A stretch of DNA of 64,000 nucleotides from Acidobacteriota bacterium (GCA_035335845.1 DAOQNB010000001.1:509-64508); one strand, 5' to 3'. Counted from the stretch's first letter, positions 2,505 through 23,100 are shown. Numbers and translations are program-made. Notes: generated from the sequence alone by a model not told the origin.

Positions 2505-5399
2505 ATGGCAATTGACCGGATTACGGTTCGCGGTGCCCGACAGCATAACCTGAAAAACATCAATCTTGAAATCCCGCGCAATACACTGACAGTGATTACC
2601 GGATTAAGTGGCTCCGGGAAATCATCACTCGCCTTTGATACCATCTATGCGGAAGGCCAGCGGCGATATGTTGACTCACTTTCAGCTTACGCACGTCAAT
2701 TTTTAGATCAACTGGAACATCCTGATGTTGATTCGATTGAAGGACTCAGCCCGGCCATTTCAATTGACCAAAAAACGACCGGGCGTAACCCACGTTCGAC
2801 TGTGGGCACCGTGACGGAGATTTATGATTACCTGCGATTGCTCTATTCCTCAATCGGGACTCCCCATTGTCCGGAATGTGCCCAACCCATTACCCGCCAG
2901 TCAGCCGAGCAAATCGTTCAGAGTATTCTGGAGTTGCCCGTTGGCGAGCGGGTGATGATTTTGGCGCCGCTGGTTCGCGGACGCAAAGGCGAATTTCAAA
3001 AAGAACTGGAAAAGCTCCAAAAGATGGGGTTTTCCCGGGCCCGGATTGATGGGGAACTTCGGTTCCTGGACGAGGAAATCCGGCTGGACAAGCGGCGAAA
3101 CCATACGATTGAAGCTGTGATTGACCGGATTCTGATCAAGGATGGAATCCAAAAACGGTTGCTTGAATCAATTCATACCGCCGTCTCCATGACCGATGGC
3201 GTGGTCATGGTGGCAGTGGTGGATGGCGATGAGAAGCTGTATTCTCAAAAAATGGCCTGTCCAAGTTGTGGCATTAATATGCCAGTATTAGAACCACGGT
3301 CATTTTCCTTCAATAGTTCATTTGGGGCCTGTAAAACCTGTGCTGGTCTGGGGGTGACCACTGAAGTTGATCCGTCGCGGTTGATTTTGGATCCCAAAAA
3401 AACACTTCCGAAACTGGAGTTTGCGGTTACCGATGGCCACATCACCAACCAGTTGCGTGAAGGGTTGCTGGCACTGGCTCGCCATCATCAACTTGGGGCA
3501 AAACTGACCTATGCTGATTTGCCACCAGCCATCAAGGACCAGTTCTTTCATGGCCTCAAAGAGAAGATTGTTTTTGAGTATGCCGGGTATGAGTATCGGA
3601 GCGTCTGGAACGGGGTCGTGAACCTCCTGCGCGAACGATTTCATGATGCCAGAACTGATCGGTTGCGCAATGAATTGGAAGGTTTGATTCTGCCTCGAAC
3701 GTGCGCTGAGTGTGACGGGAAACGGCTTCGTCCAGAAGCGCTGGCCGTTCGGGTCGGGGGGCGGGGAATTGCTGATCTGACCAGTACCGCCATTTCTGAA
3801 GCGGCTGACTGGTTTCATCAATTAAAAGTCTCCTCACGTGAAGAGAAAATAGCCGGACCACTGCTCAAGGAAATTCGGTCACGGCTCTCATTCCTCAATA
3901 AGGTCGGGCTTGGCTATTTATCGCTTGACCGGCCAGCCGCTTCGTTGTCAGGTGGTGAAGGGCAACGGATTCGCCTGGCGACACAAGTTGGTTCTCTGTT
4001 GCGAGGGGTGTTGTACGTTTTGGATGAGCCAAGCATTGGGCTACACCCACGGGATACAAACCGGTTGCTTGAGTCATTAGAACAACTGCGGGACCTGGGG
4101 AATACGGTGCTGGTCGTCGAGCATGACGAAGAAACAATCCGGCGGGCTGATTTTGTGGTTGATCTGGGGCCGGGTGCTGGTTCACAGGGCGGGGAAATTG
4201 TGGCCGCCGGGTCGCCTGACCGGATTTCAGCCGATCAACAGTCGGTAACGGGTGGGTTTCTTTCGGGGCGGCTCTCAATTCCGGTTCCGGCTACCCGGCG
4301 GCTGGTCAATGGCAAGCATCTTTCGGTGATGGGGGCGACCCATAACAATTTGAAGAAAATCGACGTCCGGTTCCCGATAGGGGTGTTTACGGTGGTCACA
4401 GGAGTTTCAGGGTCGGGGAAATCAAGTCTGGTGGGTGATATTTTATATCGGGGGCTGGCCAAACAAATTTATGGAAGTTTTTCAGTTCCGGGTGGTCACA
4501 CAACCATCGAGGGAATTGAACATATTGATAAGGTGATTGAAATTGACCAGTCGCCCATTGGCCGAACACCCAGGTCAAATCCCGCCACCTATACCGGTTT
4601 GTTTACGATGATTCGCGAACTCTATGCTGGTCTTCCCGAAGCCAGGGAGCGTGGGTATAAAGTTGGTCGCTTCTCATTCAACGTCAAAGGTGGTCGGTGT
4701 GAAGCATGTCAGGGAGATGGTCTCAAACGGATTGAGATGAACTTTCTGCCGGATGTCTATGTGCAGTGTGATGTCTGTCAGGGCGCACGCTATAACCGTG
4801 ACACGCTGGCCGTCAGGTATCGAGGGTTGTCAATTGCCGATATGCTCAATACCACGATTTCAGATGCCCTGGAGCTTCTGAGTGCCATTCCTTCAATCAA
4901 GCAAAAACTGCAAACCCTGAATGAGGTTGGATTAGGCTATCTCAAGCTCGGTCAATCGGCCACCATGTTGTCTGGCGGGGAAGCGCAACGCATGAAACTG
5001 GCCAAAGAGCTTTCCCGGCGCGCCACTGGCCGAACCCTCTACATTCTGGATGAGCCAACTACCGGATTACATTTTGAGGATGTGCGTAAGTTGTTGTATG
5101 TATTACATCGCCTGGTAGATAATGGTAATACTGTAATTGTAATTGAGCATAATCTGGACGTAATTAAGTCGGCTGATTGGCTGATTGATCTTGGACCAGA
5201 AGGTGGGGTCATGGGCGGGCGGCTGGTTGGAGAGGGCCGGCCAGAGGAGATTGCCCGATTAAAGAAATCACATACCGGGCAGGCGCTCCGAGCTGTTCTG
5301 GGGCGTCCGACACCGGGCGGCGCCAAAGGAAGATCGCGCTCGATTTCCCCTGAGCATTGGGACGATGAAGGGATTGAACTGGTCCAGGACGAGGGGTAG
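2505..5399 (+). CDS. uvrA: excinuclease ABC subunit A
   Basis: Two ABC modules ([12 protein letters not shown] and [12 protein letters not shown]), two LSGGE signatures and Cys4 zinc modules ([23 protein letters not shown]). The ATG at 2505 follows GGAG at 2495-2498. The track start at 2487 is a TTG extension. Confidence 0.97.
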
Positions 5400-5477
5400 T
5401 GCCAGGGGGATTGGGCCGGCATTCAGGTTCTTTGGCGTTTGACAGTGAGGATTTCACCGGGAGATTGATATAAAAAA

Positions 5478-5505
5478 AAGCCTGCAGAAAAAATTCTGCA
5501 GGCTT
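5478..5505. terminator. bidirectional intrinsic terminator between convergent uvrA and the M48 peptidase gene
   Basis: AAGCCTGCAGAA-aaaa-TTCTGCAGGCTT forms a 12-bp perfect stem with an A-run upstream, which reads as a T-run on the other strand. Confidence 0.7.
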
Positions 5506-5536
5506 GAGAGAGTAGAACAGGAAGCCCTCAATGGGC

Positions 5537-6649
5537 CTACTGGGAGGAGGAACTATCAGTTGGAGGCGGGTCTGAATTTTGTGGTTTGCGTTTGAGCGTT
5601 GGCCGATCAGATGGTTGAGGCGGCTGCGATTGATTGTCTATATCTCCGGTGGCATCTGGATCAACCGGCGCATTCGGCGCATTGGGGTCGGTGGTTGGGC
5701 GTCGCTTTAGGGTTGGCTTTTGTGGGGCACCCGCATCTTGCCCGGAACCACCGTTGAGTCGTCGGTTATTGGTGGCATAGAGTGCTCCAAGCCGGCTTTT
5801 CACTCGATTAAACTCAGATGTATTCATGATGTACTCGCCCTTGTCGGGAAAGCGTGACATCAAGTCTTTTACCCGCGTGATACGATCACCGTTGGCCGGG
5901 TGGGTCGAATACAATTTGGCCATGGTCCCGGGTTTATTCTTTTCACGGGCCTGAAGTTTCTCAAAAAACGTCATCATGCTATTGGGGTCATACCCGCTCG
6001 CCCAGGCATACTGGACTCCGAGCATATCCGCTTCAAATTCTGCATTTCGGCTGAATTTGAGGAAGGTTAACGGAATCAGCAGATTGGCCCCATTCTGAGC
6101 CAGGACCCCACCCAACCCGCCTAAAAAAATCAGCGGGATTGCCCCGAATTGAAGTAACTGTCCTTTGGAAACCTGTTCAGTTGAATGTCGGGCCGCGACG
6201 TGGGCAATTTCGTGAGCCATGACACAGGCCAGCTCCGACTCATTTTCAGCCGCCAGAATCAGACCCTTGTTGACATAGAAAAAACCACCAGGCAAAGCAA
6301 ACGCATTTACTTCGTCAGAGTCAATAACTTTAATTGTAAAAGGAACTTTTGAATCAGAATTCAGAACCAGGTTTTGGCCGACCCGGTTGACATATTCGGT
6401 TACCAGTGGATCAGTGACAAATTTGAGCTGGCGGTCCAGATCAGCGGCCAGTTGCTGGCCAATCGCCATTTCTTTTTCCATTGAATAAAATTGGATGCTG
6501 CCTTTATTGATATTGCGCTTCCCAATTTTCTCAGGATCTTCTTTCGTATCAAGCTTTTTGGTTGAGTTGTCAGCCAGCAGGCTCAGGCCTGGGGCAAAGA
6601 GCAACCATATCAAGAGCAGCGAAAACGGACGTGAGGCTTTCAAAAACAT
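5537..6649 (-). CDS. M48-family zinc metallopeptidase, secreted or lipoprotein
   Basis: HExxH motif in VMAHEIAHVAARH, N-terminal signal peptide MFLKASRPFSLLLIWLLFAPGLSLLA, and a Pro-rich low-complexity C-terminal tail. Confidence 0.85.
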   Translation of the reverse strand: MFLKASRPFSLLLIWLLFAPGLSLLADNSTKKLDTKEDPEKIGKRNINKGSIQFYSMEKEMAIGQQLAADLDRQLKFVTDPLVTEYVNRVGQNLVLNSDSKVPFTIKVIDSDEVNAFALPGGFFYVNKGLILAAENESELACVMAHEIAHVAARHSTEQVSKGQLLQFGAIPLIFLGGLGGVLAQNGANLLIPLTFLKFSRNAEFEADMLGVQYAWASGYDPNSMMTFFEKLQAREKNKPGTMAKLYSTHPANGDRITRVKDLMSRFPDKGEYIMNTSEFNRVKSRLGALYATNNRRLNGGSGQDAGAPQKPTLKRRPTTDPNAPNAPVDPDATGDIDNQSQPPQPSDRPTLKRKPQNSDPPPTDSSSSQ

Positions 6650-6840
6650 AAGCTGAACCCCTCGAATGAGCCAGAACGTGGATGAGTGGTGAAATAGAGA
6701 AGGACCAGGGTCGAAATCTCCAGATGTCTCCCAACAATAGCCACCATTCTAGCAAAGTCTAGATTAGACCAGGGTTAATGATGGATTAGAATCTTTTAAT
6801 CTAATGTCAGCAAACACTTGCCAGAATTGCACCCTGTGGG

Positions 6841-9800
6841 GTGATGTGCTACATTCGCAAGCCATCTATGCCTCCGCAAAACATCAAATCCTACATCGAT
6901 ATTCAGCAACTTGATCAAATCAGCAACTTTCGAGAGGCCGAGGGCGAGCGGGTTGTTCGAGCATACCACTTTACCAGCGAATTAGGCCGGCTGGTGTCCC
7001 GTAATCTTGAGGCGATTGCCTCGCCTCGGACACCAGGGGCCATTCGGATTATTGCTGGCCCGCGCGGCGTTGGGAAAAGCCATCTGTTGATGCTGATTCA
7101 AACGCTTGCGTATAAGCCGCGTGCCCGGGCGCTTGTCAGCCAGGTGCCTCAGGTCTCAAACGCCGTTCGGCGACTTGAAGGAAGTAGCTTTGTCGTTGTT
7201 CAGGTCTCAGGGCCCACTCGTGGGGCAACCACCTTTGATTTCGGGATTGCCCTGCGCGAAGCACTCAGACATTCACCTGGAAACCCGATGGAGTTTGATG
7301 ATACTCAGTGGTACCTGGCCATTGAACACGGGCAGGTGTGTGAATTGATCTGCAGTAAGTTATTTCCTGGCATGGTTTTGCTGGTGACGATTGACGATGT
7401 CTCGGAAATTTTTCGATCAGGCAAACGCGAACTCATCACCAATACCTATCGCTGGCTGTCGTTACTGGCCATGAAAGCCCGTGACCTGCCAATTGTTGTT
7501 CTTCTGGCATTAGATAGTGATGTCATCGACCCGCAAACCGGACCCGCTGCCAAGCTGACAGCCGATTATCAGGTTGATGCCCTGTCGCAGGAAAGCTTAC
7601 GGCGGATCGCTGATCAGGCGCTGTTTCGCAAGAACCCGATTCAGCGATCTGAACTGCAGGCCCTCTATCGTGAGGCGTTACGACTGCTCCCAAATTTTAA
7701 GTGGAGTGAACAGGAGTTTATTGAGATGTACCCGGTTCATCCGGTTGTGCTCGATGTATCTCCTTCCATGTGCCAGTATTGTGAAAGTTTTTCACTGTTT
7801 GGATTTATGAACGCCGCCGCCGGGCGGGCGCTTGGGCGGCGACCGCTCCAGTTAATCTCGCTTGATGAATTATTTGATCGGTTTGAATTTGATTTGCGGC
7901 GGAACCCGGTGCTGCAACGCGGGCTGGAGGTTTATGATTTTCTGGCCAGCATTGTGATTCCTACGCTCGCGTTTGGTGATCGGCTCAAAGCAAAGCTGAT
8001 TCTGAAGGGGATTTTATTGTCGTCAATATCAGGTCGAACCGTAAATGCCTATGACCTGACCGATTCGCTCATGTTGTATGAAGAACGGAGTACGGATCGT
8101 GAATCTGCCTATCGCCAGACGTTTGCCATTTTACAGCAACTGGAAAACCTGGCCGAAGGCCAGTTGATCGGTAAGGAAGAAGGGATCTCCCGGCAGTATC
8201 AAATCACAATTGTGGAGCGGCTGGATCCAGAAGCAAAACTCAATGCCGCTGCCGCTGAGATTGCTTTTGATGACCCCCGGCTGTGTGCGTTGCTGGTGAC
8301 ACTGGGCGGGATTTGTTTTCAGGAATGGCCTTTTTCGGCTGACGCCTTGCTCATGGCAAATGCTGTGGAGCAGCGAACCGAGGTCACGGGTACGTGGCGT
8401 GGCACGCATCGCAAAGGCGTTGTGGTTTTTAACCAGCCCGTTGAACTGGCCATGTTACAACCGGTTCAGATTGAGCGTCATGAAGAACGTTTGACCCCGG
8501 ATGCCATCTCCGTGGATGCTGAGGTATTTGAGGTCAAATCCTCTGTCACAACACCGTCCGGATTACAGGAAGCCATTACGACTGAAGTCAAGGTGACATA
8601 TACCTATCAGTGGGCAGAAGAATGTTGTGAGCTAGACTGGCAGATTTCGCTCTTGCCAGCGATATATCCTGAAATTCCTGACACCGTGCCCCCAATTCCG
8701 AGCCTGTTATTTTGGAAGCCGGGGATGCTTGACGCCGCCGGCTGCGACATCCTGAAAAAAGCCTGGGTTGTGTATACCCGTGGGGAGGAAGTTTTAGGGA
8801 TTGAGGCGGCTGATCGCTTACAGTATCTTGAAATTCAGGTTCGCGAGTTATTTCTCAAGCTCTATATCGAACAGGGCCTGTTGATCAGCGCAACGGGAGA
8901 AAAGTATTCCGCCAAAAATTTCTGGCCGGATGGGACACTCCAGAAACGGTTTGTTGATTTTGTGGGGGTGTTGATTCAGACCCCACTGGATAAACGATTT
9001 CCACTCCACCCGGTCTTTCAATCAGGGCTGACCGAACGTGAAGTCCGGCGACTGGTCCTTGGACTCATGGGGGGATTGAACCCAACAGATGCTGCGGTTC
9101 AGGAATATGCTCTCAGCTATGCCGTACCATTGCATATTGTCACTGAACGGGAAGGGGTTTATCAACTGGCGGTTGATCGCGATGAAGCCCTGAGTCAGCC
9201 CTTTATTAGCGAAGTGCTCCGACTGGTGGAAGCCAGCGCCTCGGGTGACCCGATACCGGTCCAGGTGATTTACCAGACGTTGCGCCGTGAACCATATGGG
9301 TTGCTGGAGCCAGTCCAGCAATTGATTATGATGGCGCTGATTGCCGGTTGGCGCATTGAGTTGATTGATGTTTCGGGGTTGCGGGTTTTTGGCGCTGCCG
9401 AGTTAACCCAGGATGTCAGCTTTCGGCAATATGGAACGGTCCGCCGGACAGCGACGATCAGCTATTCGGCTGAAGTGCTCACCGAATGGTGTCGGTTATT
9501 AACTGAACGACCAGATCTGCCGGAGCTGACAGCCGTGCAGGCCCGGAAAATGATTCGCGAGGCACTGGCTGGCTGGTATCAGCGATGGGCTGACTTAAAC
9601 CTGGCCGAGCGGTTTAATTCATTGCCAGTTGAAATGATGACCACCCGTACCTGGCAGTTGATCATTACCTGCAAGCGATATTTTGAAACAACCTCAAACG
9701 CCGTTGAAGCGGTGTTGCACGAACGGATTTCACTGGAAATGGGGCTGGCTCGTATTGTCGAGGTTTTTTCCGCCAATCCAACCATTTTTCAGCGGGCCAG

Positions 9801-10680
9801 ACATGAATTTCAACTGCTGGTTGAGTTTCTCAACTGGCTCCCGTACTACATTCGGGCCAAGACCTACACCCTGACAGCCGTTCAGTTGAATAATGAGGAA
9901 ATCAATGCCCATCGGCGTGAACTGACTCATTTTTTTGATCATCCCCACCGGTTGCTTGATGAAGATAAGCGCCGCCGATTTGAAGCTACCTTTCGGAGTT
10001 TTCAGGATAAATTCACCAACCTGTACGCCACAAAACACGAAGACGCCATGACCAAACTGGTCAATCTGGAAACGCTCGAAGAGTTTCTGGCAAGTCGTTT
10101 GTGGCGCACCTTTGAGCTGGTCAGCCAGTTAAACATTGCCAACCCGCGATTTCTGGTTCTGGCTCAGGAAATGATCAAGCTGATTCGAGAATCACATTGT
10201 ACGCTTCCAGTGCGGGATATCTTATCGATTCAGCCGGCGTGCTCGTGCGGGTTTCGGGTTGGGTCAGTGACCCCCATCTCAACGATGGTTGAGGATTTGA
10301 AACAACTGGTTCGGACCGGGGTTGATTATCATCGCCGATTAATCTTCCAGTACCGCCCAAAACTCAGTCAGAATTTACGAACTGCAACCACGGCGACGGG
10401 TAGCAATAAAGACCAGGTGGGTGCCCTGCTGGCATTGATCAGCTCCGGAGAATCAACCACGGCCATGACCATGACTCCAGGTATGGTCGAGTTGATCAAT
10501 GAATTTCTCAAAGAGGAAACCCGTGTGATTCCTGCCTCTCCGCCCGCACCGTTTGTCCTGGGGGATCGGTTGACGAAAGCTGAGTTAAAATCCAGACTGA
10601 GTTCCTGGTTGGAAAGTCTTCCTGATGATGGAGATCTGGCATTTGAAATATCTGAATCGCCATTTGCAGGGGAGAATTAA
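6841..10680 (+). CDS. very large (1279 aa) P-loop NTPase, reminiscent of BrxC/PglY (DUF499/DUF6079) class, function unknown
   Basis: Single Walker A motif IIAGPRGVGKSH at ORF residues about 71-81 and a Walker-B-like LLVTIDDVSE. A YPVHP motif follows the NTPase core, then about 900 mostly helical residues, with CSCG near the C-terminus. GTG 6841, ATG 6844 and ATG 6868 are alternative starts. Confidence 0.8.
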   Translation: MMCYIRKPSMPPQNIKSYIDIQQLDQISNFREAEGERVVRAYHFTSELGRLVSRNLEAIASPRTPGAIRIIAGPRGVGKSHLLMLIQTLAYKPRARALVSQVPQVSNAVRRLEGSSFVVVQVSGPTRGATTFDFGIALREALRHSPGNPMEFDDTQWYLAIEHGQVCELICSKLFPGMVLLVTIDDVSEIFRSGKRELITNTYRWLSLLAMKARDLPIVVLLALDSDVIDPQTGPAAKLTADYQVDALSQESLRRIADQALFRKNPIQRSELQALYREALRLLPNFKWSEQEFIEMYPVHPVVLDVSPSMCQYCESFSLFGFMNAAAGRALGRRPLQLISLDELFDRFEFDLRRNPVLQRGLEVYDFLASIVIPTLAFGDRLKAKLILKGILLSSISGRTVNAYDLTDSLMLYEERSTDRESAYRQTFAILQQLENLAEGQLIGKEEGISRQYQITIVERLDPEAKLNAAAAEIAFDDPRLCALLVTLGGICFQEWPFSADALLMANAVEQRTEVTGTWRGTHRKGVVVFNQPVELAMLQPVQIERHEERLTPDAISVDAEVFEVKSSVTTPSGLQEAITTEVKVTYTYQWAEECCELDWQISLLPAIYPEIPDTVPPIPSLLFWKPGMLDAAGCDILKKAWVVYTRGEEVLGIEAADRLQYLEIQVRELFLKLYIEQGLLISATGEKYSAKNFWPDGTLQKRFVDFVGVLIQTPLDKRFPLHPVFQSGLTEREVRRLVLGLMGGLNPTDAAVQEYALSYAVPLHIVTEREGVYQLAVDRDEALSQPFISEVLRLVEASASGDPIPVQVIYQTLRREPYGLLEPVQQLIMMALIAGWRIELIDVSGLRVFGAAELTQDVSFRQYGTVRRTATISYSAEVLTEWCRLLTERPDLPELTAVQARKMIREALAGWYQRWADLNLAERFNSLPVEMMTTRTWQLIITCKRYFETTSNAVEAVLHERISLEMGLARIVEVFSANPTIFQRARHEFQLLVEFLNWLPYYIRAKTYTLTAVQLNNEEINAHRRELTHFFDHPHRLLDEDKRRRFEATFRSFQDKFTNLYATKHEDAMTKLVNLETLEEFLASRLWRTFELVSQLNIANPRFLVLAQEMIKLIRESHCTLPVRDILSIQPACSCGFRVGSVTPISTMVEDLKQLVRTGVDYHRRLIFQYRPKLSQNLRTATTATGSNKDQVGALLALISSGESTTAMTMTPGMVELINEFLKEETRVIPASPPAPFVLGDRLTKAELKSRLSSWLESLPDDGDLAFEISESPFAGEN

Positions 10681-10770: not shown

Positions 10771-12459
10771 TTAGCGGGAACTGGTCAACTGGCTGGCTGA
10801 TTCAACTGTAAAATTGGTTTTCGGGGTCAGGGTTTGTCGCCCGACCCGGTCAGTAATTGAGACGGTAACTTCATAATCACCAGGTTCAAGGCTGGTTAAA
10901 GGGATTGAGCGTCCTAAAATGATTTGCTGGCCGCTCCCAGAAAGATCAGAAATTCCATTTTTTCCATCTTCTTTGAGCCGCAGGACTTCCTGTCCATTTT
11001 TGGTGATGACATATTCAACATCGACCGCTGGCTGGAGCGTGGTCTGGTCAATTTGCACATTATAAACCTGCAAATAGACCCCCAGGCTTTGATTGGTTTT
11101 GAAAACTTGTGACACATTGGGGCGAACCTTGTTGGATCCAACAATAAAAGGTCCGGCTGCTACCCGACCCCGTAATGGTTCGAGCAGATCCGCAATGATC
11201 AAAGAACTGGTGATCATTTTTTCCTGACTGTATTGGGGAACTTCAAAGCCGTGATGAACCACGCCAGTGTGCCCGCTGGTGATGTCGCGGACGACCATAT
11301 CAATCTTGTATCGTCCAGGGGGCAGGACCACTGATTTTTGGTATACGGAGCTTTGTTGAATGCCTGAATCAAATTGTGATTCAGGGAAGGCAATCGTGGC
11401 TGGATCTTCAAAAATACCGGCTCGTTTGCCTGACAGGGCCGTCACACGGGCAAAAATATTCACGGTTGCCTGCTGAATACCACCTACGTTCTTGAAACTC
11501 AGGTCACTATTTTTGACCTGGGTGGTGAACACCATGACCCCTTGTGCCTCACCAGCTCGAATATAGTCTGTTCGGAGGCTTAAGGGGAGCACATCAAATT
11601 CAGTTAACTGATCAACTTTTTCAAGTTTATCAGCCAGTGCCCGGTATTTGACCTGGGGCGCCCTTTGAAGGTTGGCATACAGGGATAACCGTTCGAATGG
11701 CTGGTCCTGTGCCCGGCGGACATATTGAGAACTGTTACTGTTCCCAGGACTAAAGTAAGGCCGGTCACGTTTGGAGGTAATCCCAAGCTGTTCGTACAAG
11801 GTTAACCCGCCGTTCGGGGTAAACAACAAGGCGTCCTTTTCATCCGGGCTTTGCGCAATCCGGTACTCTCCGCTTCCACTGGGATCTACAAACTCAATTT
11901 CAATGCCGGACCCAATCCCATCAATAAAGCGGTAGAACCAGATTTCAAATGGGAATGTGGAGGTCTGCCCCCCGCCCTGATAATACGGGCGTTCATAGGG
12001 CCCCCCTGCCGGGTGGGATTCAATACTGTCGGGCGGTCCAAATGTAATGTAGATCCGACCCCGGTCTGTTTTCCATCCTGGTATCCCGGATGAAAACCGC
12101 TCATTCGCATAGGCAATTCGGCGATAATACTCTTCCAGGTATTCATTTTCGGTGGTATCTGGATCTGGATCCCGCCGCAGCCAGAATTGCTCAATGAACT
12201 CCTCGCGTTCTTCATCGGTAAGGAGCTTCTTGAAGGCATCGCGTTCTTCCTTGGTGATGATGTACCGGACATCTTCATCAAGCCATTTTTGATAGACTTT
12301 CTCAACTTCAACTTTCCGTTTCTGCTTCTTCTTTTCACCTTCTTGTCTGGCCAGTAACGGGTTGGTTGAGGCCAGACACAAGAACATCAAAACAAAACAA
12401 CTGATGCGATACGCAAATCTGCGTGATGTTGAAAAAGGATGTGGGTGGTTCATAGTCAT
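10771..12459 (-). CDS. GWxTD domain-containing secreted protein
   Basis: 562-aa ORF with a signal peptide, FWLRRDPDPDT and GWKTDRGRIYITFGPPD motifs, and a C-terminal beta-rich region. Confidence 0.85.
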   Translation of the reverse strand: MTMNHPHPFSTSRRFAYRISCFVLMFLCLASTNPLLARQEGEKKKQKRKVEVEKVYQKWLDEDVRYIITKEERDAFKKLLTDEEREEFIEQFWLRRDPDPDTTENEYLEEYYRRIAYANERFSSGIPGWKTDRGRIYITFGPPDSIESHPAGGPYERPYYQGGGQTSTFPFEIWFYRFIDGIGSGIEIEFVDPSGSGEYRIAQSPDEKDALLFTPNGGLTLYEQLGITSKRDRPYFSPGNSNSSQYVRRAQDQPFERLSLYANLQRAPQVKYRALADKLEKVDQLTEFDVLPLSLRTDYIRAGEAQGVMVFTTQVKNSDLSFKNVGGIQQATVNIFARVTALSGKRAGIFEDPATIAFPESQFDSGIQQSSVYQKSVVLPPGRYKIDMVVRDITSGHTGVVHHGFEVPQYSQEKMITSSLIIADLLEPLRGRVAAGPFIVGSNKVRPNVSQVFKTNQSLGVYLQVYNVQIDQTTLQPAVDVEYVITKNGQEVLRLKEDGKNGISDLSGSGQQIILGRSIPLTSLEPGDYEVTVSITDRVGRQTLTPKTNFTVESASQLTSSR

Positions 12460-14108: not shown

Positions 14109-15458
14109 TCATAAAAAGAGGTGGGCCCGGGAAAGGATGGCGTCGGCTACCAGGCAACATTGTCGCATTTGGTGTACGTCGTGCACTCGGACCAGATGGA
14201 CTCCCTGCTGGATAGCCAGGGTCACGCTGGCGGCAGAACCCCAGCCTCGCTCAGATGGAGTCTGCTGATTCAGGATTGTCCCCAGAAATGATTTTTGAGA
14301 CGTACCGACCAGAAGCGGAAAGCCGAGTTCAGCAAAATAATTGAGATGAGCATGAAGGAGCAAGTTGTCATTCCCTGATTTTCCAAATCCAATTCCGGGA
14401 TCAAGAACAATTGACTGAGCTGAAATTCCTGCCTGACGGGCCTGTGCAATACTGGATGTCAGGCCTGTGCGCACGTTCTCCAGGATATTTGCCACGGGAG
14501 GGAGGGTATGGAGTTGGCCTGGCGTTCCCCGGCTATGCATCAGAACGACCCCGGCCCTGGTTTTTGAGATGATATTACATATAGCTGGGTCGTAATTAAG
14601 TCCTGTAATGTCGTTGATAATGTCTGCCCCCGCTGTCAGCACTTTTTCAGCTACGGACGCTTTATAGGTATCAACTGAAATCGGAATCTTGAGTTTTGGT
14701 CGCAAGCCCTCAAGAACGGGGAGGATCCGGCGTAACTCTTCTTCTGCTCCAATTGGATCGGCACCTGGGCGGGTAGACTCGGCGCCTAAATCAATTATGT
14801 CAGCTCCGTCCTGGGTAAGCTGTAATGCATGTTCGATGGCGCGAGACGGTTCGTAATATTTCCCTCCGTCAGAAAAAGAGTCAGGTGTAATGTTTACGAT
14901 CCCCATGAGAAGAGTCCGGTGACCAAGCTGAAGTGTGTGATTGGGGAGGTGCCACTGGAAAGGGCGGCGGTAGGGGGTAAGACGGGTCTGAACATGGCGG
15001 AGTGCCACTTGATTTCCATGCCAGATCAAATACGTGAGAGCTTCCTCAAATGGTACCCAGATGGCTGATTCATGCTCACTGGGGTCAATGTGGATTGGCG
15101 CAGACGAGGAGGCCAAAAACCCAAATGCAAATTCATCATTATGGGTTGTGCCAGCCGGGTAATTCACAAGCCATTCTTCCTGGAGCGGGTAACTATGTTC
15201 ATATCCTGCATCAAATAAAATTCCATCCTGTGGGGTAAGGCCGGTTTCTTCAAACAGTTCCCGACGGGCAGTTTCCGTAATGGTTTCTCCTGGTTCAACG
15301 CGCCCAGTGATGGGCTGCCAGAAATGCCCCCGGGATTGAATCCGTCGGAGCAGAAGAACTTCAAAATTTGGGATGGATTGATCGGGGGCCGTCTGACGGA
15401 CGACAAATATTTGAACGGATTGAGGGACCCGAAGGGCTTTGAGCTGATTGGTTGGCAT
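14109..15458 (-). CDS. folP: NUDIX hydrolase - dihydropteroate synthase fusion
   Basis: The N-terminal NUDIX box is GHFWQPITGRVEPGETITETARRELFEETG. The C-terminal DHPS region carries GIVNITPDSFSDGG, DIIDLGAESTRPG and GFGK. The ATG at 15458 (MPTNQ) is preferred because the track start at 15581 would overlap the upstream gene by 47 nt. Confidence 0.85.
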   Translation of the reverse strand: MPTNQLKALRVPQSVQIFVVRQTAPDQSIPNFEVLLLRRIQSRGHFWQPITGRVEPGETITETARRELFEETGLTPQDGILFDAGYEHSYPLQEEWLVNYPAGTTHNDEFAFGFLASSSAPIHIDPSEHESAIWVPFEEALTYLIWHGNQVALRHVQTRLTPYRRPFQWHLPNHTLQLGHRTLLMGIVNITPDSFSDGGKYYEPSRAIEHALQLTQDGADIIDLGAESTRPGADPIGAEEELRRILPVLEGLRPKLKIPISVDTYKASVAEKVLTAGADIINDITGLNYDPAICNIISKTRAGVVLMHSRGTPGQLHTLPPVANILENVRTGLTSSIAQARQAGISAQSIVLDPGIGFGKSGNDNLLLHAHLNYFAELGFPLLVGTSQKSFLGTILNQQTPSERGWGSAASVTLAIQQGVHLVRVHDVHQMRQCCLVADAILSRAHLFL

Positions 15459-15534
15459 TGAAGAAGTTGCTTCGAAGGAAGGATAGACAGGGTCGTTTCT
15501 GGTAAGCGTGAGGTAGACGGTTGCAATCCGGGGG

Positions 15535-17328
15535 TTAGCGGGTCTTGGCGATCTGAAAATTGGGGTTGGCCAGTTCTTCAATTAAAGTATACAGAGCCGG
15601 ATCAAGTTTCCGGAGTTCGTCACGGGTATGACGGCCAGTGATTCCTAACCCAGGGCGCTTGGAGATGGACACATAGGCTTCATACCCCTGGGCAAAGTAT
15701 TCCCACTCATTGGCTGCTGCATAGTAATCAAGGGTACGACCTTCTCGAACTGCTTTGGCATACAGTGCCTGGATGCGTTCCAGAAGGGGTTTATCAAACA
15801 CACTGCTATGAACCTGATGGGCAAATTCATGGGCAATGGTATTAAACCCACCCTGTTCGACCACATTCAGGTATTCAATTCCAGAAACTGTGACCAGTCC
15901 CCCAACCCCGCGAATACTGCTGTAATATCGGCCATCAAACGTGGTCCGATCTTCAAGCATTTCATACCCCGCGATTTCAGGAAGCTGGCGATCAAGTGGG
16001 AGCAGATAGTGTTTGGCCCCGCGTCGCTTTAATTCAGGAAGCAAATGGGCAAACGGGGCGACCGAAAGGTTGATAATTCGCTGCTGGTCAGCGGCAAGGC
16101 CAAAATAATTGACAAAAACCTCGCCAATATCAGTGGGGGCCGTTTGTTCAGGCGGAGCTGGAAGATCTGGCAGGTTGATTCCAACAGCTTTGCGGGCACG
16201 TTCGTGAAGTTCAGCGTGTGCAAGGCTTAACTGGAGTTGAGCTAAAGCATTTTCTGGATCAATTGTGGTTGCCTGTTCGGCTGCTACGGTCGCGAGTTCA
16301 AGGTTTCCGTCTGAAAGTGCACAGGCTCCAAGCCCAAGGTAGGCCTGAAGAAAAGCCGGTGAAAGCTGGGTTGCTTGCTCATAAGCCTCAATTGCTCGTT
16401 CTATTTCCTTACGCCGGGCAAAGTCAGAGGCCTTCTCGAAATATTTTTGGGCTTCGGGTAAGACCGCCGGCATAGCTTTTCGACTACGGATGTATTGTGA
16501 AAAAAGCCTTCGAATCCGGGCGTTATATGGATTAAGGTCAAGTACTTCTTGAGCTAACTTGCGAACTGCCTCTGGGTTGCGTTCAATCACCCGGACTGAG
16601 CACAGCACAGATTTTGCTTCGAGGTTAAAGGGATCCAGGTCAAGTGCGCGTTGGGCGGCTGAAGATGCCTGAGGGTAACGGTTTTGTTCAAGAAAAACCT
16701 TGGCTAACGTTGAGTAAACCGATGAATCATTTGGTCTTTTGGTCGAAAGTCTGGTGAGGATATTCTCACTTTGAGCATAATCACGATTGAGGAGTGCCAC
16801 GGTGGCTTTCCCCAGCCATGCCCGTGAGTCCTGTGGTGAGATCTGAAGTATTTTCTCAAAGAATTGCCCGGCAGTGACTGGATCTTCAATTGTTAGATAG
16901 AGTATGCCGTACGAATTGAGTAATGACAGGTAGGTTTCATCAACAGCTTTTGAGGCAACTGATTCAGGTTCCAGGCGTGCCTGGGCCAGGAAGGCGGCCT
17001 GGTGCAGAAATTCAAGTGATTGCTGGTAATCGAGTTTGATTCGGGCGATTTCGGCCAGCCCTAACAGGGCTGAGATATTATTTTTATCTGCAACCCGGGC
17101 TGTCTCAAACGCTCGTTCAGCTTCGTTTAAATGCCATTTTTGCCGCAGTGTCGCTGCCCGCCGGGTATATTCAGCCGCGATTTCGCTTGGGTGGGCTGAT
17201 TGTGCCTGAAGTGGAAGTGAATCAATGGTGCCGATAAAGCCAGTCAGCAAGAGAACATACACAAGGCCACGAAGGTGGTTGATGCCAGGAAAAGAGAAGA
17301 TGGGAAGTTGAGGTAAGCGCTCTTTCAT
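15535..17328 (-). CDS. TPR-repeat protein with a C-terminal HExxH metallopeptidase-like domain
   Basis: Multiple TPR units, a signal-like N-terminus from the ATG at 17328 (MKERLPQLPIFSF...LLLTGFIG) and a C-terminal FNTIAHEFAHQVH motif. The track start at 17490 is an upstream extension. Confidence 0.7.
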   Translation of the reverse strand: MKERLPQLPIFSFPGINHLRGLVYVLLLTGFIGTIDSLPLQAQSAHPSEIAAEYTRRAATLRQKWHLNEAERAFETARVADKNNISALLGLAEIARIKLDYQQSLEFLHQAAFLAQARLEPESVASKAVDETYLSLLNSYGILYLTIEDPVTAGQFFEKILQISPQDSRAWLGKATVALLNRDYAQSENILTRLSTKRPNDSSVYSTLAKVFLEQNRYPQASSAAQRALDLDPFNLEAKSVLCSVRVIERNPEAVRKLAQEVLDLNPYNARIRRLFSQYIRSRKAMPAVLPEAQKYFEKASDFARRKEIERAIEAYEQATQLSPAFLQAYLGLGACALSDGNLELATVAAEQATTIDPENALAQLQLSLAHAELHERARKAVGINLPDLPAPPEQTAPTDIGEVFVNYFGLAADQQRIINLSVAPFAHLLPELKRRGAKHYLLPLDRQLPEIAGYEMLEDRTTFDGRYYSSIRGVGGLVTVSGIEYLNVVEQGGFNTIAHEFAHQVHSSVFDKPLLERIQALYAKAVREGRTLDYYAAANEWEYFAQGYEAYVSISKRPGLGITGRHTRDELRKLDPALYTLIEELANPNFQIAKTR

Positions 17329-17718: not shown

Positions 17719-18705
17719 TCATCGAAAGAAGAGCCAGGTGGCCAAAATCACGGCATGGCAGGCCCACAACCCCAGAGCAAATTTCCATTGATGGCGAATG
17801 ATCCCATAGGGGTTTTTCATTTCATAAAGGTAGGCCGGGAGCAGATTGAAGTTCGCCGCCATTGGGGAAAGCAGGGTGCCACAGCTCCCAGCCGTCAAAC
17901 CCAAAATGGCGACAAACGCCGGGTCAAGTGAATACGGCAGGATCACCAGAGGGATTCCAATACCGACTGTTACCACGGCAAATGCTGCAAAAGAATTTCC
18001 CATAATGGCTGTAAAAACGGTCATGGTTGCAAGGTAGACAAGTCCTGCCAGGAATGGACGATTGGGCGGAATGAAGTAGGCGAAGTAGCTGGCCAGAAGT
18101 GTGCCTACCCCGGCGCCAGTGAAAACTGTCCCCAGAGCTGCCAGTAGCTGGGGCAAAATATTGAGCGTCCCGATTTCTTCCGTGAGTGTCGCCCCAGCTT
18201 CGGCCAGTTCTCTAATCCGGCGAGACGTCATCCAGCAAGCCAGAGCCATAGCTACCACACCACTCACGCCGAGTCCGATTAAGGCGCCGGTCGAACTATC
18301 CATTCCTAACCACCGGTAACTAAGGGCAACTGCAAAGGTTATCCCTGGAATTGCCAGCACCGGCCACAAAATGGCGCCGGGCGTTCTGGAGCACAGGCCA
18401 GGCAGGGAAGCCTGGCTTGATTGAGCCTTTATTGGATCTGGTTGAGGTGTGTTGGGAGGAATTTCAGTGCGGATGATCGCTGGTCGGATGACACCTGTGG
18501 CATCCAGAAAAACCAAAAGCCCGACCGCTAGTCCGACCAGTGGGTATCCACTATATGGAATTTTCTCTGGAAGAAGAAATACGGCCCCCAGTACTGCCCA
18601 GTAGAGTGCATTCGCGCTCCGGTGGTGATGTTTTTGAGTCGTAATGGTAATTACTGAAGTTGAGATAAGGATAATTGCGATAATTATGTAGGTTAGGTGA
18701 AGCAT
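17719..18705 (-). CDS. DUF979-family integral membrane protein (putative transporter subunit)
   Basis: 328-aa polytopic membrane protein immediately downstream of a DUF969-like gene. The N-terminal pattern (TM - basic patch - LYWAVLGAVFLL) fits my recollection of DUF979 proteins. Confidence 0.55.
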   Translation of the reverse strand: MLHLTYIIIAIILISTSVITITTQKHHHRSANALYWAVLGAVFLLPEKIPYSGYPLVGLAVGLLVFLDATGVIRPAIIRTEIPPNTPQPDPIKAQSSQASLPGLCSRTPGAILWPVLAIPGITFAVALSYRWLGMDSSTGALIGLGVSGVVAMALACWMTSRRIRELAEAGATLTEEIGTLNILPQLLAALGTVFTGAGVGTLLASYFAYFIPPNRPFLAGLVYLATMTVFTAIMGNSFAAFAVVTVGIGIPLVILPYSLDPAFVAILGLTAGSCGTLLSPMAANFNLLPAYLYEMKNPYGIIRHQWKFALGLWACHAVILATWLFFR

Positions 18706-18753
18706 AGTTGTTACGTAATTACTTTTAGGTGGTGAGTAGTCGCTGTATTGTAA

Positions 18754-19425
18754 TTACCTATTGCTGTGTTTGAGGTGTAAAAACTGGATTACAGAGAGTA
18801 AGAGCGAGCATACGACGATTGGAATGGCATCAATGGCAATGGCGATGGGGGTTGTTTCCAGGCCGGCATCTTTTAAAACTTTGTACACCAGGAGACATCC
18901 AGCCGATGCTGGGAATAGATTCTGACCAAAGAAATTGCCATAATTCTCGCTGGCCCCAAGATTTCCTTTGATTTGCTCTGATTGCTCTTCAACGTATTCG
19001 GCTGGTGGTACTATACCGAACGCCATTGGAAGAATGAGTGGCCGACCAAATACGGCGTGACCACTGACCCGTAATCCAGATGCGCCAATCAAAACTCGAA
19101 TAAACTGGTATATCCACAGAAGTGATCCAACGGTTGTGAGCCGGAGTTTTTGAATCAACTTTGACGCTGCCTGATGCAATCCATACCGTTCGGCGAGTCC
19201 AATTGCCGGCAATGTAATCAGGTAGAGTGAAATGAGTCTGCCATCCAGAAATGCCTTGCCGAGGGTATCAAAAATGCCTGGGGTCGTTTCGGTTCCAATG
19301 AGCGGCATTCCAGCGAGCAGCCCGGTTGCAATTCCGGCAACGAGAATGACTGGGCCAGTTTTTAATCTAAAAATGAGTCCGATAATAATAATTAAAATGC
19401 CAAGTAACTTGAGTTCTGGTATCAC
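18754..19425 (-). CDS. DUF969-family integral membrane protein (putative transporter subunit)
   Basis: ELKLLGILIIIIGLIFRLKTGPVILVAGIATGLLAGM matches the DUF969 N-terminal pattern. The GTG at 19425 is preceded by AAGGAG (complement of 19434-19439). The track start at 19482 is TTG. Confidence 0.55.
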   Translation of the reverse strand: MIPELKLLGILIIIIGLIFRLKTGPVILVAGIATGLLAGMPLIGTETTPGIFDTLGKAFLDGRLISLYLITLPAIGLAERYGLHQAASKLIQKLRLTTVGSLLWIYQFIRVLIGASGLRVSGHAVFGRPLILPMAFGIVPPAEYVEEQSEQIKGNLGASENYGNFFGQNLFPASAGCLLVYKVLKDAGLETTPIAIAIDAIPIVVCSLLLSVIQFLHLKHSNR

Positions 19426-19983
19426 AACAGTACTCCTTTGGATGATGAGCTGACGCTTTCTTCCTGTGCCAGGGGCTGACAAAGGTCACCGAGTATGCGG
19501 TAAGTTGAGTGATTTGGGCAATCCCAGATTAAAGACAAAATACCTGGGCTAGATGAGAATAGCAGAAGGTTCAGTTGGCGCATTGATGTACCTGGTATGA
19601 GGCAATCCTTGTTTATGATCTCGGAGAGTCGCCGCGCCAGAATTGAAAGCTCTGGTTGTTGAGTTTTAACTCAGTCAACCAAAAGAATGACTTCATCTCT
19701 CTGGTACCCCCAGGTCAGTCTTCCAAACAAAGTTCTTCATCAGAAGCGATCCGGTCAAAGGAAGTGAACTACCTGATTGCAGGAACTGAATAGTGTACAA
19801 TGTTCCGGCATACAAATATGTGAGATATTGAAACTCGAAGTAATCCAACTCTACGTTTGCAGGTCGAGATCTGAGGCTGTGATCTGACCGCACCCGCAAA
19901 CTGGGTGCTCCTTATATAGAAAGAGCACTTTTCTGGAGTGTTGATTTCCAAGCCAGCAGAATCTTTTTCTGAGGTGATTGAAT

Positions 19984-20178: not shown

Positions 20179-23100
20179 GTGCCTGAAGCTCAGGCGCTTA
20201 ATTCAGGAGTCGCGATTCGTGAATTGGCTGCTCACCCCTTTGACCAGGATGCTGTCAAAACAGTTGAGCGCATTTTGTTATCTGTGATGCCGGATCATTC
20301 AGGTGGTCAACAGGCTGACGCCGTTCGATATTTTCTCCAGTGCCTGCTCGAAGAATTATGTTCAGTCAAGAAACTCCGTGAATTGCTTTCCCTGATTTAT
20401 CAGCAAAAGTCGCTGGCGCTTGAGATGAAGCAAGTTGAAATCAGTCAGAAGACTTTGGACGTGCTTGATCATCGAATGCCAGTTCCGCCTGATATTCAAA
20501 AAGCCCAACGCCAGTACCTGGACTATGTCGTGAGATGGAATCGTAAGCTTGAGGCACAGGGAATTATGCCGACCCATCGCTCAGTGACGCTGCCGCTTGA
20601 TGAAATTTTTGTCAGATTGACGTGTGATACAGAAAAGACAGAGTTTGAGCCGTTGAAACGAAGGCTGGAAAAATCAAAACTTGGAATTGTGGAGACGCCC
20701 GGATTTGATAACGAGTTTTTAGAGGATTGGCCCTTAGCTGAACACCTGTCAGCAGTGGTGCAACCCGAAGATGTGGACTTATCACGTATCATTGCTCATC
20801 ATCGTCAGGTGGTCATTTTGGGCGATCCCGGTTCGGGGAAGACCACACTCATGCGGTTTCTGGCATTTCATTTTGCCCGTGAATTTCGAGATCATGGCCC
20901 ACAGGGAATCGTGACTGATAAAGATGGTCAAACGTATGGGGCAGCTCGCTTTCCGATACTGATTCGCATTTCGACTTATGCCGAGGAACTGCGGCTCAAT
21001 CACAACACGTCATTCAGAGAGTTTCTTGCTGTACCATTTGGGGATACTGGGATTGAGTTGCCGGTTTTGAAACGTATTTTTGATCAAGTACTCCAGGATG
21101 GTGAGGCTCTGGTGCTGCTAGATGGCCTGGATGAGGTCACTGAGTTTCATGACCGTTCACAGCGCATTGCAAGTTTTGTATCGGCTGTTTCACCCAGGAA
21201 TCATTTTGTGGTGACCAGTCGAATCGCTGGCTATCGAGCTGCCAGATTAAGCGGGGACTTTCAACAATTCACCTTGCGGAAATTTGACAAGCCTCAGATT
21301 GAAGCGTTTCTCAATCAATGGTGCCTGGCCGTCGAACAATTTCACTATCCCGATTTGGCACCGTCTGATGTAGGTCGGCTGGCTCAACAGGAAATAGATG
21401 GAATCCTGCAGGCGGTGCATGAAAGTCGAGGCGTTTTAGAGCTGGCATCCAATCCATTGATGTTAATCATCCTGGCGTTGATTCACCGAAATGGAAAACG
21501 GCTTCCAAGCCGTCGAATTGAACTCTATGACTTGGCCGTAAAAACACGGTTGCGGGACTGGCAGCTCCAGCGAGGGTTAAGAATCGAACACGTCGTAAAA
21601 GAAAAAGATGCACTGTTGTTTTTGGCGCCGCTAGCATATTGGATGCATCAGGAACGGCCAACCGGACTGATAAAAACAAGCGAAGTGAAAGCCAGATTGA
21701 TGCCGTACCTGGCTTACTCGCGCCAGGTTTCGGTTGAAGATGAAAAAATTGAAGAAGACGTTGATGACTTTTTACGTCGGGTCAGAGAACATACGGGGGT
21801 TTTTGTCGAGCGGACGACCGGCCGGTATGGATTTATGCACCTGACGTTTGAAGAGTATTTTGTGGCACGTGAGATTGCTCGTCGAGCGAAGGAGTCAGCG
21901 GAGAAAATATACCCCTATCGGCATCATCCAAGATGGCATGAGCCGATTATGTTGGCTATTGGATTTATCAGTACTGATCGCCCAGATGATGCTTCTGAAT
22001 TGGTCCAAACTGCGATTCTTGGGGAAGGAGAAGAAGCCGGCCAGAAAAGTTTTACGGCAAGCCTCTTTGAGGACGTACTCCACCGGGATTTATTGCTGGC
22101 GGTTCAATGTCTTGGTGACTGCAATTCGACTGACACTGCTTTTCGCAAGCAAATTGTAACCAAATTTACTGAAGTCTACCTTGAGAGTCAGAATCTCCCA
22201 TTTGATAAGCGAGTTGAACTGGTACTGAAAAGGCTCAAAGGCAGCGATCTTGAAGCCGACTTGGTGGAAATCGCATTGAATCATCTTGATCATGAGAATG
22301 ATCGAAAAAGAGCAAAAGCGGTCACAATTCTGGGAGGATTGGCATTTTCAACACCTCAGCTTATAGATCAAATCCTTGACATGCTGGCGGATCAAAGTGA
22401 AAGCGTTCGAATTCAGGTCATTGTATATTTTGCCCAGTTTGGAAATCCTTCTCCTGAAGTACTCAAGAAAGTATTTGCTTCCATCGATACTGAACAAGGA
22501 ATGGTTCTGAATGCTGTCCCTTTTCTTTTTTGGAAAATGGAAAAACTATCTCCGGCGATAGAGACTATTCTCGAAGCGTATCTGGAAAGAGGAGAGTTCG
22601 TTGTTCAACTCAACATTGCGAGCAGGTTGAGTGGCTCTCCGGAAGCTGCAATAAGAGCGACCGGGAAGTTGATTGAGCGGATGAAGGGGTTGAGTGGGAT
22701 TGAAAAAGGTCAGGCAATGCTTTTGATCGGTGTGATTGGATGTGCAACCAGGATGGTTATACAGGCACTGGTTGAGCAACTTGAAGACCAGAATCCGGCT
22801 GTTCGTGAGGATGCCGTTATGGGGTTGAGTGAATTGTCTGGCAAGTCCCCAGACGTTTTACCGATTTTGTTGAAATATCTCAACGATACGAACAAAAAGG
22901 TAAGGTGGCAGGTAGTACGAGCGCTTGGGAAAATACCAGATCCCTCAGAAGAAATTGGTCTCATCTTGACTGAGAAATTAAATGATCAGAGCTGGTACGT
23001 TCAATCCTTCGCGGCAAGAAGCCTGAAACAATTGAATATGGTCTCTCCTCAGGTTGCCGAATCCTTCCTGGTCCGCTTAACAGTCGGAACTCAAGAAGAT

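Follow-up and report, generated by a model that had tools for sequence, protein, structure and literature searches.

A BrxC/PglY-family (DUF6079) ATPase-like protein of Acidobacteriota from a BREX-free clade that lacks the Walker B glutamate

Among the core components of BREX (bacteriophage exclusion) systems, BrxC is understood least, and how BREX stops phage has long been open. BrxC binds double-stranded DNA (dsDNA) in an ATP-dependent manner for which hydrolysis is not required (PMC13326643). The catalytic Walker B glutamate of the Acinetobacter protein is E269, and the E269Q variant (Walker B E-to-Q) keeps DNA binding and forms ATP-bridged dimers (PMC13326643). DNA favours higher BrxC oligomers, and its binding involves the alpha+beta and winged-helix domains (PMC13326643). 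A role in dimerisation is predicted for the last 80 residues, and the AAA+ domain also docks BrxB:PglZ (PMC13326643). The top profile for canonical BrxC is DUF6079 (bioRxiv 10.1101/2025.10.09.681413). Here we describe a member of this family that is encoded, with no BREX gene in its annotated surroundings, at 6841..10680 of a 64,000-nucleotide stretch of an Acidobacteriota bacterium (GCA_035335845.1, DAOQNB010000001.1:509-64508; the whole stretch is referred to below as the window). The features of the gene and its surroundings are collected in Table 1.

A first-pass annotation of the DNA had described a solitary ORF (open reading frame) of 1279 amino acids (aa) with the motifs GPRGVGKSH, LLVTIDDVSE, YPVHP and CSCG, and had likened it to BrxC/PglY. 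The ORF was confirmed, all four motifs lie where they had been placed and are conserved in relatives, and the resemblance was borne out by Pfam, by PADLOC at both ends of the protein, by hhalign and by Foldseek. The start codon is GTG, with alternative ATG starts at 6844 and 6868; alignments of homologues begin at about residue 10-13. A database protein of 1278 aa (P0001) is 99% identical to the window protein.

The window protein is a true, full-length BrxC/PglY homologue with the same domain order. Pfam family PF19557 (DUF6079, named BrxC-PglY_N in newer releases) aligns residues 70-472 with profile positions 64-486 (E 1.3e-13; 49.8 bits, the gathering score being 23). DUF499, the other family that the first-pass annotation had suggested, gave no Pfam match in the protein. 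At the N-terminus a BrxC-PglY model of PADLOC matches residues 15-448 (E 2.7e-16, 56.5 bits), and at the C-terminus the PADLOC BrxC model PDLC02482 matches residues 1002-1154 at model positions 961-1111 (E 1.8e-8), collinear with the first match. A family profile built from 29 members aligned with the PglY profile in hhalign at 99.1% probability (E 9.5e-19) over 712 columns (query columns 42-781).

The fold leads to the same relatives. The AlphaFold2 model of residues 13-1212, computed from 57 sequences, has a mean pLDDT (predicted local distance difference test) of 87.3. In the PDB, Foldseek puts chains from the solved N-terminal structures of Acinetobacter BrxC in all of the first seven places (9zll, 9zdx, 9zn5; E 3.5e-8 to 5.9e-6, target-normalised TM score 0.40-0.51, with 0.50 for the hit at E 3.5e-8), and ORC, Cdc6, FtsH and other AAA+ proteins rank below them. 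The order of elements in the model (AAA+ core, lid, winged helix, alpha+beta domain with a long helix, two winged-helix-like modules, helical C-terminus) agrees with the published BrxC scheme (bioRxiv 10.1101/2025.10.09.681413). The window protein thus shares with BrxC/PglY the length of about 1200-1300 aa, a GxxGxGKSH Walker A at the same position, a YP-x-x-P motif, the ORC/Cdc6-type AAA+ fold, the domain order and collinear profile matches at both ends.

On the other hand, the protein stays below the NCBIfam cut-offs for BrxC and PglY. Neither BREX_BrxC (NF033441) nor BREX-2 PglY (NF047891) matched it, and the relative P0029 reached 31.6 bits, below the cut-off of 400. Sequence searches of the PDB with the protein and with the family profile returned P-loop noise only. 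Since the bona fide PglY profile itself reaches the solved BrxC at an E value of only 2e-4, these weak signals do not argue against homology; the PDB sequence search is uninformative here, and a fold search was therefore needed. DUF499/SspC proteins, which are BREX-related and belong to the Ssp phosphorothioate systems, also have an N-terminal ORC/Cdc6-like AAA+ domain. However, the PADLOC SspC models match more weakly than BrxC-PglY (20-33 bits, E 4e-9 to 2e-5), the C-terminal architecture is another one, and DUF499 proteins are accompanied by a methyltransferase and a helicase-nuclease.

We examined motif conservation in a family set of 82 relatives from Blastocatellia loci. The Walker A core G-x-x-G-x-G-K-S (GxRGVGKSH) is invariant in all 80 relatives that cover it. 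The Walker B aspartate, D185, is present in 81 of the 82, the remaining one having an ambiguous residue at this position. In YPVHP, which profile comparison with hhalign identifies as the family version of the BrxC/PglY motif YPF(A/S)P (YPFxP), Y297 is kept in 81/82 and P298, H300 and P301 in 82/82. Conservation is spread over the whole protein except for an insert at about residues 521-600. This insert lies inside the alpha+beta domain and is confined to the subclade of the window protein; column conservation there is 0.13-0.22, and the model falls below a pLDDT of 50 at its residues 547-567.

The clade is set apart by the residue that follows the Walker B aspartate. PglY-type canonical proteins read LFLDE at Walker B. 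Among the 82 relatives this position holds Thr (68), Asp (6), Asn (4), Gly (2) or Ser (2), and never Glu; the six with Asp form the subclade of the window protein, in which the residue is D186. The hhalign register, which set the family's IDT on the VDMDT of PglY, was rejected, as a MAFFT alignment of 273 N-termini aligns D185 with the D of LFLDE. That alignment comprises 123 proteins with the canonical DE (DE-type) and 150 without the glutamate (Glu-less). All but one of the Glu-less sequences (149 of 150) group together in a neighbour-joining tree, in a clade without any DE member.

The loss is not confined to the glutamate. In the numbering of the DE-type protein P0065, residues E269, R277, R341, R359 and R425 are conserved at 97-100% in the DE group (Glu at 100%). 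In the Glu-less clade each of these five columns has the expected residue type in only 1-11% of sequences, and the four R/K columns hold R or K in 1-6%. The E269 column is acidic in 11%, mostly Asp, with no Glu among the top residues (D186 in the window protein); the values for the others are 4% at R277 (G194), 5% at R341 (D242), 6% at R359 (A260) and 1% at R425 (F317), where Phe stands in 146/150. The Walker A Lys and Ser (K79, S80) and the Walker B Asp (D185), on the other hand, are kept in 100% of the 273 N-termini. The reference sites in Acinetobacter BrxC are K326/R330 for the trans-acting arginine finger and R430 for sensor 2. Judged by the spacing from Walker B, an approximate mapping, R341 is likely to correspond to the finger R330 and R425 to the sensor 2 residue R430. 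The window protein thus differs from BrxC/PglY by replacements at three kinds of site: the Walker B Glu, the putative Arg finger or fingers, and the sensor 2 Arg.

This coordinated pattern suggests that binding of nucleotide and Mg is retained and the hydrolysis apparatus is lost. We infer that the window protein would bind ATP and hydrolyse it poorly or not at all. In this respect it resembles degenerate AAA+ and STAND scaffolds, such as the "inactive STAND" protein BrxB and the non-catalytic subunits of ORC, which keep the P-loop fold, have lost the hydrolysis residues and are presumed to play a nucleotide-dependent or structural role in assembly. In contrast to BrxB, which is without both Walker motifs, the clade of the window protein keeps Walker A and the Walker B Asp, and nucleotide binding is probably retained.

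The extent of this group was traced with an exhaustive HMMER search of 1.84 billion representatives, which gave 1404 proteins at E <= 1e-3, of which 462 reach E <= 1e-30. The relatives found include full-length "DD" proteins (the P0149 group), proteins of about 1000 aa (the P0184 and P0187 groups) and two that keep "DE" (P0191 and P0206). Word-indexed searches had suggested a large gap around the family (at least 925 bits, then 57 bits); this gap was discarded as a prefilter artefact, since HMMER found intermediates at 320-560 bits. A further group (P0163-P0183, "DG") shares the first ~770 residues of the architecture, after which a response-regulator receiver domain (REC) follows. These fusions of the N-terminal module support a regulatory, switch-like use of it. 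The REC-fusion proteins have a conserved tail, some 70 residues long and with ...KFRLF at its end, and reach 2015 aa with long low-complexity linkers; one of them (locus L093, 5993-9526) lies between an ABC transporter gene and pyrF/tyrS.

Of the relatives examined, the nearest one embedded in a BREX locus is the BREX type 3-like BrxC P0191 (locus L091: SNF2 helicase, N6 methyltransferase, BrxC, PglZ). It scores 378 bits against the family profile, compared with about 57 for PglY, and shares the cysteine motif C..PxCxCGF in the C-terminal domain. It differs in its canonical Walker B DE, in adjoining a methyltransferase and PglZ, and in falling outside the Glu-less clade of the neighbour-joining tree.

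This cysteine motif belongs to a second conserved feature, a His-Cys3 tetrad in the C-terminal domain to which CSCG (residues 1134-1137) supplies C1134 and C1136. These two cysteines are each kept in 78/82 relatives, and the pattern at H1066, C1120, C1134 and C1136 is HCCC in the same number. In four sequences of a subclade that contains Chloracidobacterium (L002, L010, L011, L012) all four residues are replaced together. The tetrad cysteines are the sole conserved cysteines of the family. Ligand-type residues that are kept or lost as a set are what would be expected of a structural zinc site, for which a Zn-hook or an SMC hinge may be an analogue. The C..PxCxC motif also occurs in the wider Glu-less relatives and in P0191 and P0206, but in only 7 of the 123 DE-type proteins. 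PglY-type proteins, which have one or two Cys in total, do not have the tetrad. Modelled alone, the C-terminal 403 residues, which contain the tetrad, are all-helical (pLDDT 90.4, predicted TM score 0.77). For these 403 residues Foldseek found no analogue among solved structures (best E 0.25).

The distribution of the gene was determined with a peptide-pattern scan for the Walker A motif over one genome per species. It gave 446 stretches encoding a relative, of which the best 80 were fetched; these 80 are from Blastocatellia (Pyrinomonadaceae, Chloracidobacterium, Blastocatellaceae, Aridibacter and, as a cultured member, Pyrinomonas methylaliphatogenes K22). The fetched loci carry Blastocatellia-type labels except two from study SRP287051, which are labelled Firmicutes. 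Both are contigs of metagenome-assembled genomes (MAGs) with a Blastocatellia-type gene and synteny: L009 (CAZXCE010000047.1, "uncultured Clostridia") and L034 (CAZWAK010000044.1, "uncultured Heliobacteriaceae"). The Clostridia label is almost certainly mistaken, because gene content and synteny match a Blastocatellia MAG, and the Heliobacteriaceae label is probably mistaken too. With 98.7% aa identity and a dS of 0.24, L009 stands closest to the window gene. Word-indexed searches found further full-length relatives at 67%, ~50%, ~31% and ~25% identity.

No BREX partner accompanies the gene. PglZ, PglX, PglW, BrxA, BrxB, BrxL and BrxH were not found in the 64-kb window with Pfam (40 ORFs of at least 150 aa) or PADLOC (10 ORFs). 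Pfam annotation within 10 kb on either side likewise found no PglZ, PglX or other BREX gene for nine members of the clade across 12 loci (P0002, P0007, P0009, P0013, P0029, P0129, P0149, P0168, P0187). Five of these are family members at 67-27% identity, and the wider relatives P0149, P0168, P0129 and P0187 are equally BREX-free, in a metabolic or housekeeping context. The only methyltransferases near the relatives are small class-I S-adenosylmethionine (SAM) enzymes, several genes off, and the PAPS reductase of type 4 BREX is likewise absent from these loci. The same annotation applied to control outgroups recovered the PglW-PglX-PglY-PglZ-BrxD-BrxHI locus of P0069, the BrxC-PglZ-methyltransferase-BrxL locus of P0066 and the SNF2 helicase-methyltransferase-BrxC-PglZ locus of P0191. 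The window gene therefore differs from BrxC/PglY genes in having no PglZ, PglX, BrxA, BrxB or BrxL nearby, and throughout the annotated loci the clade is solitary with respect to BREX genes. The first-pass annotation had gone further, to the absence of any kinase, nuclease or phosphatase gene from the 64 kb. This was too broad, because two histidine kinases, a bifunctional-nuclease-domain protein and a GlpX FBPase (fructose-bisphosphatase) are encoded in the window, none of them BREX-type.

What recurs beside the gene is a housekeeping neighbourhood. We called and clustered the ORFs of 82 non-redundant loci and annotated the cluster representatives with Pfam. A Rossmann-like/DUF2520 gene lies directly downstream on the same strand in 56/78 evaluable loci; it often overlaps the stop codon of the BrxC-like gene, the called genes overlapping by 8-11 bp, and a malic enzyme gene usually follows it. 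A divergent M48 peptidase gene is found at most three ORFs upstream in 42/62 evaluable loci and recurs in relatives down to ~25% identity, with the block rplM-rpsI-rpsB-tsf-pyrH-frr located beyond it. The subclade of the window protein has kept the M48 gene and lost the DUF2520 link. The 67%-identical relative (L001) shows the same order of M48, the gene, GWxTD ... MFS and NUDIX-DHPS (dihydropteroate synthase). In the loci of P0007 and its closest relatives, which come from hot-spring metagenomes and a MAG of Chloracidobacterium, a DUF512 radical-SAM gene and LptE flank the gene. A literature search on DUF2520 returned nothing useful; DUF2520 proteins include the ketopantoate reductase PanG, which we do not use as evidence. 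In the 4.8-Mb contig of P0029 (L008), genes of defence or toxin-antitoxin type (DruA-domain, HNH and BrnT-toxin) lie upstream at 4637-8241; an aminotransferase gene separates this cluster from the BrxC-like gene, and it is not conserved in other loci.

The inheritance of the gene follows that of its neighbours. Over the same genome pairs, its protein identity correlates with that of DUF2520 (Spearman rho 0.89), M48 (0.84) and malic enzyme (0.68). In evolutionary rate the BrxC-like protein is close to DUF2520 and exceeds both M48 and malic enzyme. The Nei-Gojobori dN/dS against the closest relative is 0.022 (dS 0.24; 15.5 non-synonymous vs 189.5 synonymous differences), and seven other pairs give 0.05-0.2. 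The base composition of the gene is the same as that of its surroundings, and tblastn against 72,556 plasmids found no copy. The gene is thus vertically inherited in Blastocatellia, in a housekeeping neighbourhood and under strong purifying selection. In distribution, synteny and selection it is atypical of a defence-island gene, for which patchy, variable and mobile occurrence is characteristic, and in this it also differs from BrxC/PglY genes. The BREX-like reading of the first-pass annotation does not survive this result, as the homologues lie consistently in a conserved housekeeping neighbourhood of related genomes. Its "stand-alone variant" comes closest; however, the evidence favours a cellular gene that is inherited vertically and whose catalytic motifs are degenerate, and not a stand-alone defence gene.

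On balance, and with modest confidence, we propose that the window protein is probably an ATP-gated, hydrolysis-poor DNA-binding scaffold with a cellular role, for example in nucleoid organisation or regulation, and not a component of a methylation/restriction machine. The part of this proposal that concerns identity and evolution is strong; the mechanism is drawn by analogy with BrxC. What favours a cellular role is the conserved chromosomal position, the kind of selection acting on the gene and the fusions to receiver domains seen in a sister branch. ATP binding would act as a switch that controls self-association and lets the winged-helix and alpha+beta domains bind dsDNA, as happens in vitro with BrxC and its E269Q variant. 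Dimerisation would be mediated by the helical C-terminal domain, to which zinc probably lends stability, and there would be no BrxB:PglZ for the protein to dock. A broader proposal, which we make only tentatively, is that this is a class-wide core gene for a catalytically dead BrxC paralogue that might provide ATP-gated, zinc-stabilised DNA binding or bridging in chromosome organisation or gene regulation. The Glu-less clade would then be either the cellular ancestor that BREX recruited or an ancient domestication of a defence protein.

Several points weigh against the scaffold proposal. The cellular role is something we infer from context, and zinc binding is suggested by conservation, so that the site is a putative one. 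Loss of the Glu is no proof that hydrolysis is lost; the window's own subclade has Asp there, and a second acidic residue serves some P-loop NTPases. The neighbour-joining tree is midpoint-rooted and without bootstrap, and its sampling is biased towards similarity to the family. The inspection covered at most 10 kb per side of each homologue, and unlinked BREX-like partners are possible elsewhere in the genomes. Slow rearrangement of the genomes, and not function, may account for the synteny with M48 and DUF2520. Finally, lineage-wide core defence genes exist, and a conserved position is no strict exclusion of an immune role.

This last point leads to the alternative that fares best, although we consider it unlikely: an immune protein, i.e., a single-gene or dispersed BREX-derived defence factor that senses or binds invading DNA, alone or with partners elsewhere. 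The full-length homology to a defence scaffold is compatible with it, as is the inspection range of 10 kb, and descriptions of BREX-related variants with fewer genes are appearing (bioRxiv 10.1101/2025.10.09.681413). However, canonical BREX loci have BrxC beside BrxB, PglX and PglZ in 88-98%. The window protein has lost the hydrolysis residues, and scans with Pfam, PADLOC and NCBIfam detected no effector domain (nuclease, protease, TIR etc.) in it. Its lineage-wide and not patchy occurrence, conserved housekeeping synteny and lack of plasmid copies also argue against immunity, as do dN/dS values of 0.02-0.2 and an even conservation that includes the alpha+beta and winged-helix regions, since these regions are reported to be fast-evolving in BREX BrxC (bioRxiv 10.1101/2025.10.09.681413).

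It is less probable still that the recurring neighbours are functional partners and link the protein to cell-envelope biogenesis, for example through regulation of genes for outer-membrane or lipopolysaccharide (LPS) assembly. Such a link would account for the BepA-like M48 peptidase with a signal peptide, divergent and upstream in 42/62 loci, and for LptE, which overlaps the stop codon by 4 bp in Chloracidobacterium-type loci. In E. coli, BepA and LptE share LptD as a target. P0149 has PBP1 immediately upstream, and glycosyltransferases (GT2, PMT_2, YfhO) are found near several loci. Examples of envelope-biogenesis neighbours are at L002 13708-14307, L092 995-3271 and the M48 position of the window. 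However, membrane and secretion features are absent from the window protein, whose architecture is of a DNA-binding type; any neighbourhood commonly includes envelope genes, so that coincidence is possible; the neighbours vary among subclades; and the most frequent operonic partner is the cytoplasmic DUF2520 oxidoreductase-like gene.

Two further options came from the first-pass annotation. An unrelated giant P-loop NTPase that is BrxC-like in size only would explain the missing NCBIfam BrxC/PglY match and the empty PDB sequence search, and is very improbable, being excluded by the homology evidence (Pfam above threshold, collinear PADLOC models, hhalign at 99.1%, Foldseek top seven all BrxC). 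A decaying remnant of a lost BREX system, for which the absent partners and degenerate motifs could speak, is the least credible and effectively refuted by strong purifying selection (dN/dS 0.022 at dS 0.24), by an intact frame of 1279 codons, by full-length orthologues down to 25% identity and by conserved replacement residues (F317 in 146/150; the HCCC tetrad).

The scaffold proposal bears on BREX itself. A BREX-free BrxC lineage that keeps the P-loop and has lost the hydrolysis residues is a natural equivalent of the Walker B E-to-Q mutant, and a simpler protein for studying what the BrxC architecture alone does on DNA. It also offers a case of traffic between defence and housekeeping, in which either a cellular DNA-binding ATPase was taken up by BREX or a defence scaffold became domesticated and was kept throughout the class Blastocatellia. 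In practice, DUF6079 matches in Acidobacteriota should not be annotated as BREX nor counted as defence systems. Full-text searches (DUF6079; BrxC with Acidobacteria) returned no description of a BREX-free housekeeping BrxC clade, which is not proof of novelty, and the most comprehensive BREX survey makes no mention of Acidobacteria, the Walker B motif or a housekeeping BrxC homologue.

Table 1. Coordinates of the BrxC-like gene, its parts and other features of the window
Feature	Position	Strand	Remarks
BrxC/PglY-family (DUF6079) ATPase-like ORF, BREX-free Glu-less clade	6841..10680	+	1279 aa
N-terminal BrxC-like module	6877..8520	+	~residues 13-560: ORC/Cdc6-type AAA+ core, helical lid, first winged helix
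Walker A, G73-PRGVGK-S80	7057..7080	+	GPRGVGKSH = residues 73-81
Degenerate Walker B, LLVTID185-D186	7378..7398	+	LLVTIDDVSE = residues 180-189
YPVHP	7729..7743	+	residues 297-301; near-invariant in family
Central beta-rich alpha+beta domain and long helix	8371..8871	+	~residues 511-677; from secondary structure/pLDDT and conservation profile
Subclade-specific insert	8401-8640		~residues 521-600
Two winged-helix-like modules	8878..9450	+	~residues 680-870; AlphaFold2 secondary-structure order vs published BrxC scheme
C-terminal all-helical domain	9469..10677	+	residues 877-1279; confident model
His-Cys3 tetrad, putative Zn site	10036..10248	+	H1066 10036-10038; C1120 10198-10200; C1134-x-C1136 10240-10248
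Secreted BepA-like M48 metallopeptidase, divergent neighbour	5537..6649	-	signal-like N-terminus; below NCBIfam cut-off
Perfect hairpin, 24-bp stem, 3-nt loop	10702..10752	.	between convergent genes
GWxTD-domain protein, convergent neighbour	10771..12459	-	same arrangement in 67%-identical relative
NUDIX hydrolase-dihydropteroate synthase (Pterin_bind) fusion	14109-15581	-	490 aa; same fusion in L001
DUF979/DUF969 adjacent pair	17719-19482	-	uncharacterised membrane-protein families
NACHT + HEAT-repeat STAND NTPase	20179-23709	+	1176 aa
Bifunctional-nuclease-domain protein	32122-32697		
Histidine kinases (two)	42295-43515; 48534-51476		
GlpX FBPase	45603-46649		

The immediate surroundings of the gene had been described as an M48 peptidase gene on one side and a terminator with a 25-bp stem on the other. 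Both flanking elements are present; the stem has 24 bp. The hairpin folds with a dG of -49.2 kcal/mol (z = -10.8), none of 200 shuffles folding as well, and is likely to be a bidirectional terminator. The terminator scan missed it because it has no T-tail. A promoter scan near the gene gave no convincing candidate, and Rfam and tRNA scans found nothing relevant there.

By its Pfam content the window is an ordinary chromosomal region. It holds genes for repair and chromosome maintenance (OGG glycosylase, UvrA, RuvA, RecN, ParA/ParB, a Xer-type recombinase, SSB) and for metabolism and cofactors (NUDIX-DHPS, CoaBC, GlpX, PurQ-like, transketolase), together with an MFS transporter, two-component regulators and tRNA-Leu. 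Within 30000-40000 the GC skew changes from + to - at about 36 kb, a terminus-like sign change. DnaA-box matches are not enriched anywhere in the window and do not explain the skew switch. It adjoins parA/parB (32666-34430) and the Xer-type tyrosine recombinase gene (35183-36121); parAB is typically found near the origin. The NACHT/HEAT STAND NTPase matches EruA weakly (44.8 bits against a cut-off of 1000) and also gives a weak PADLOC HEAT-ARM match. It may be a defence-type STAND protein unrelated to the BrxC-like gene.

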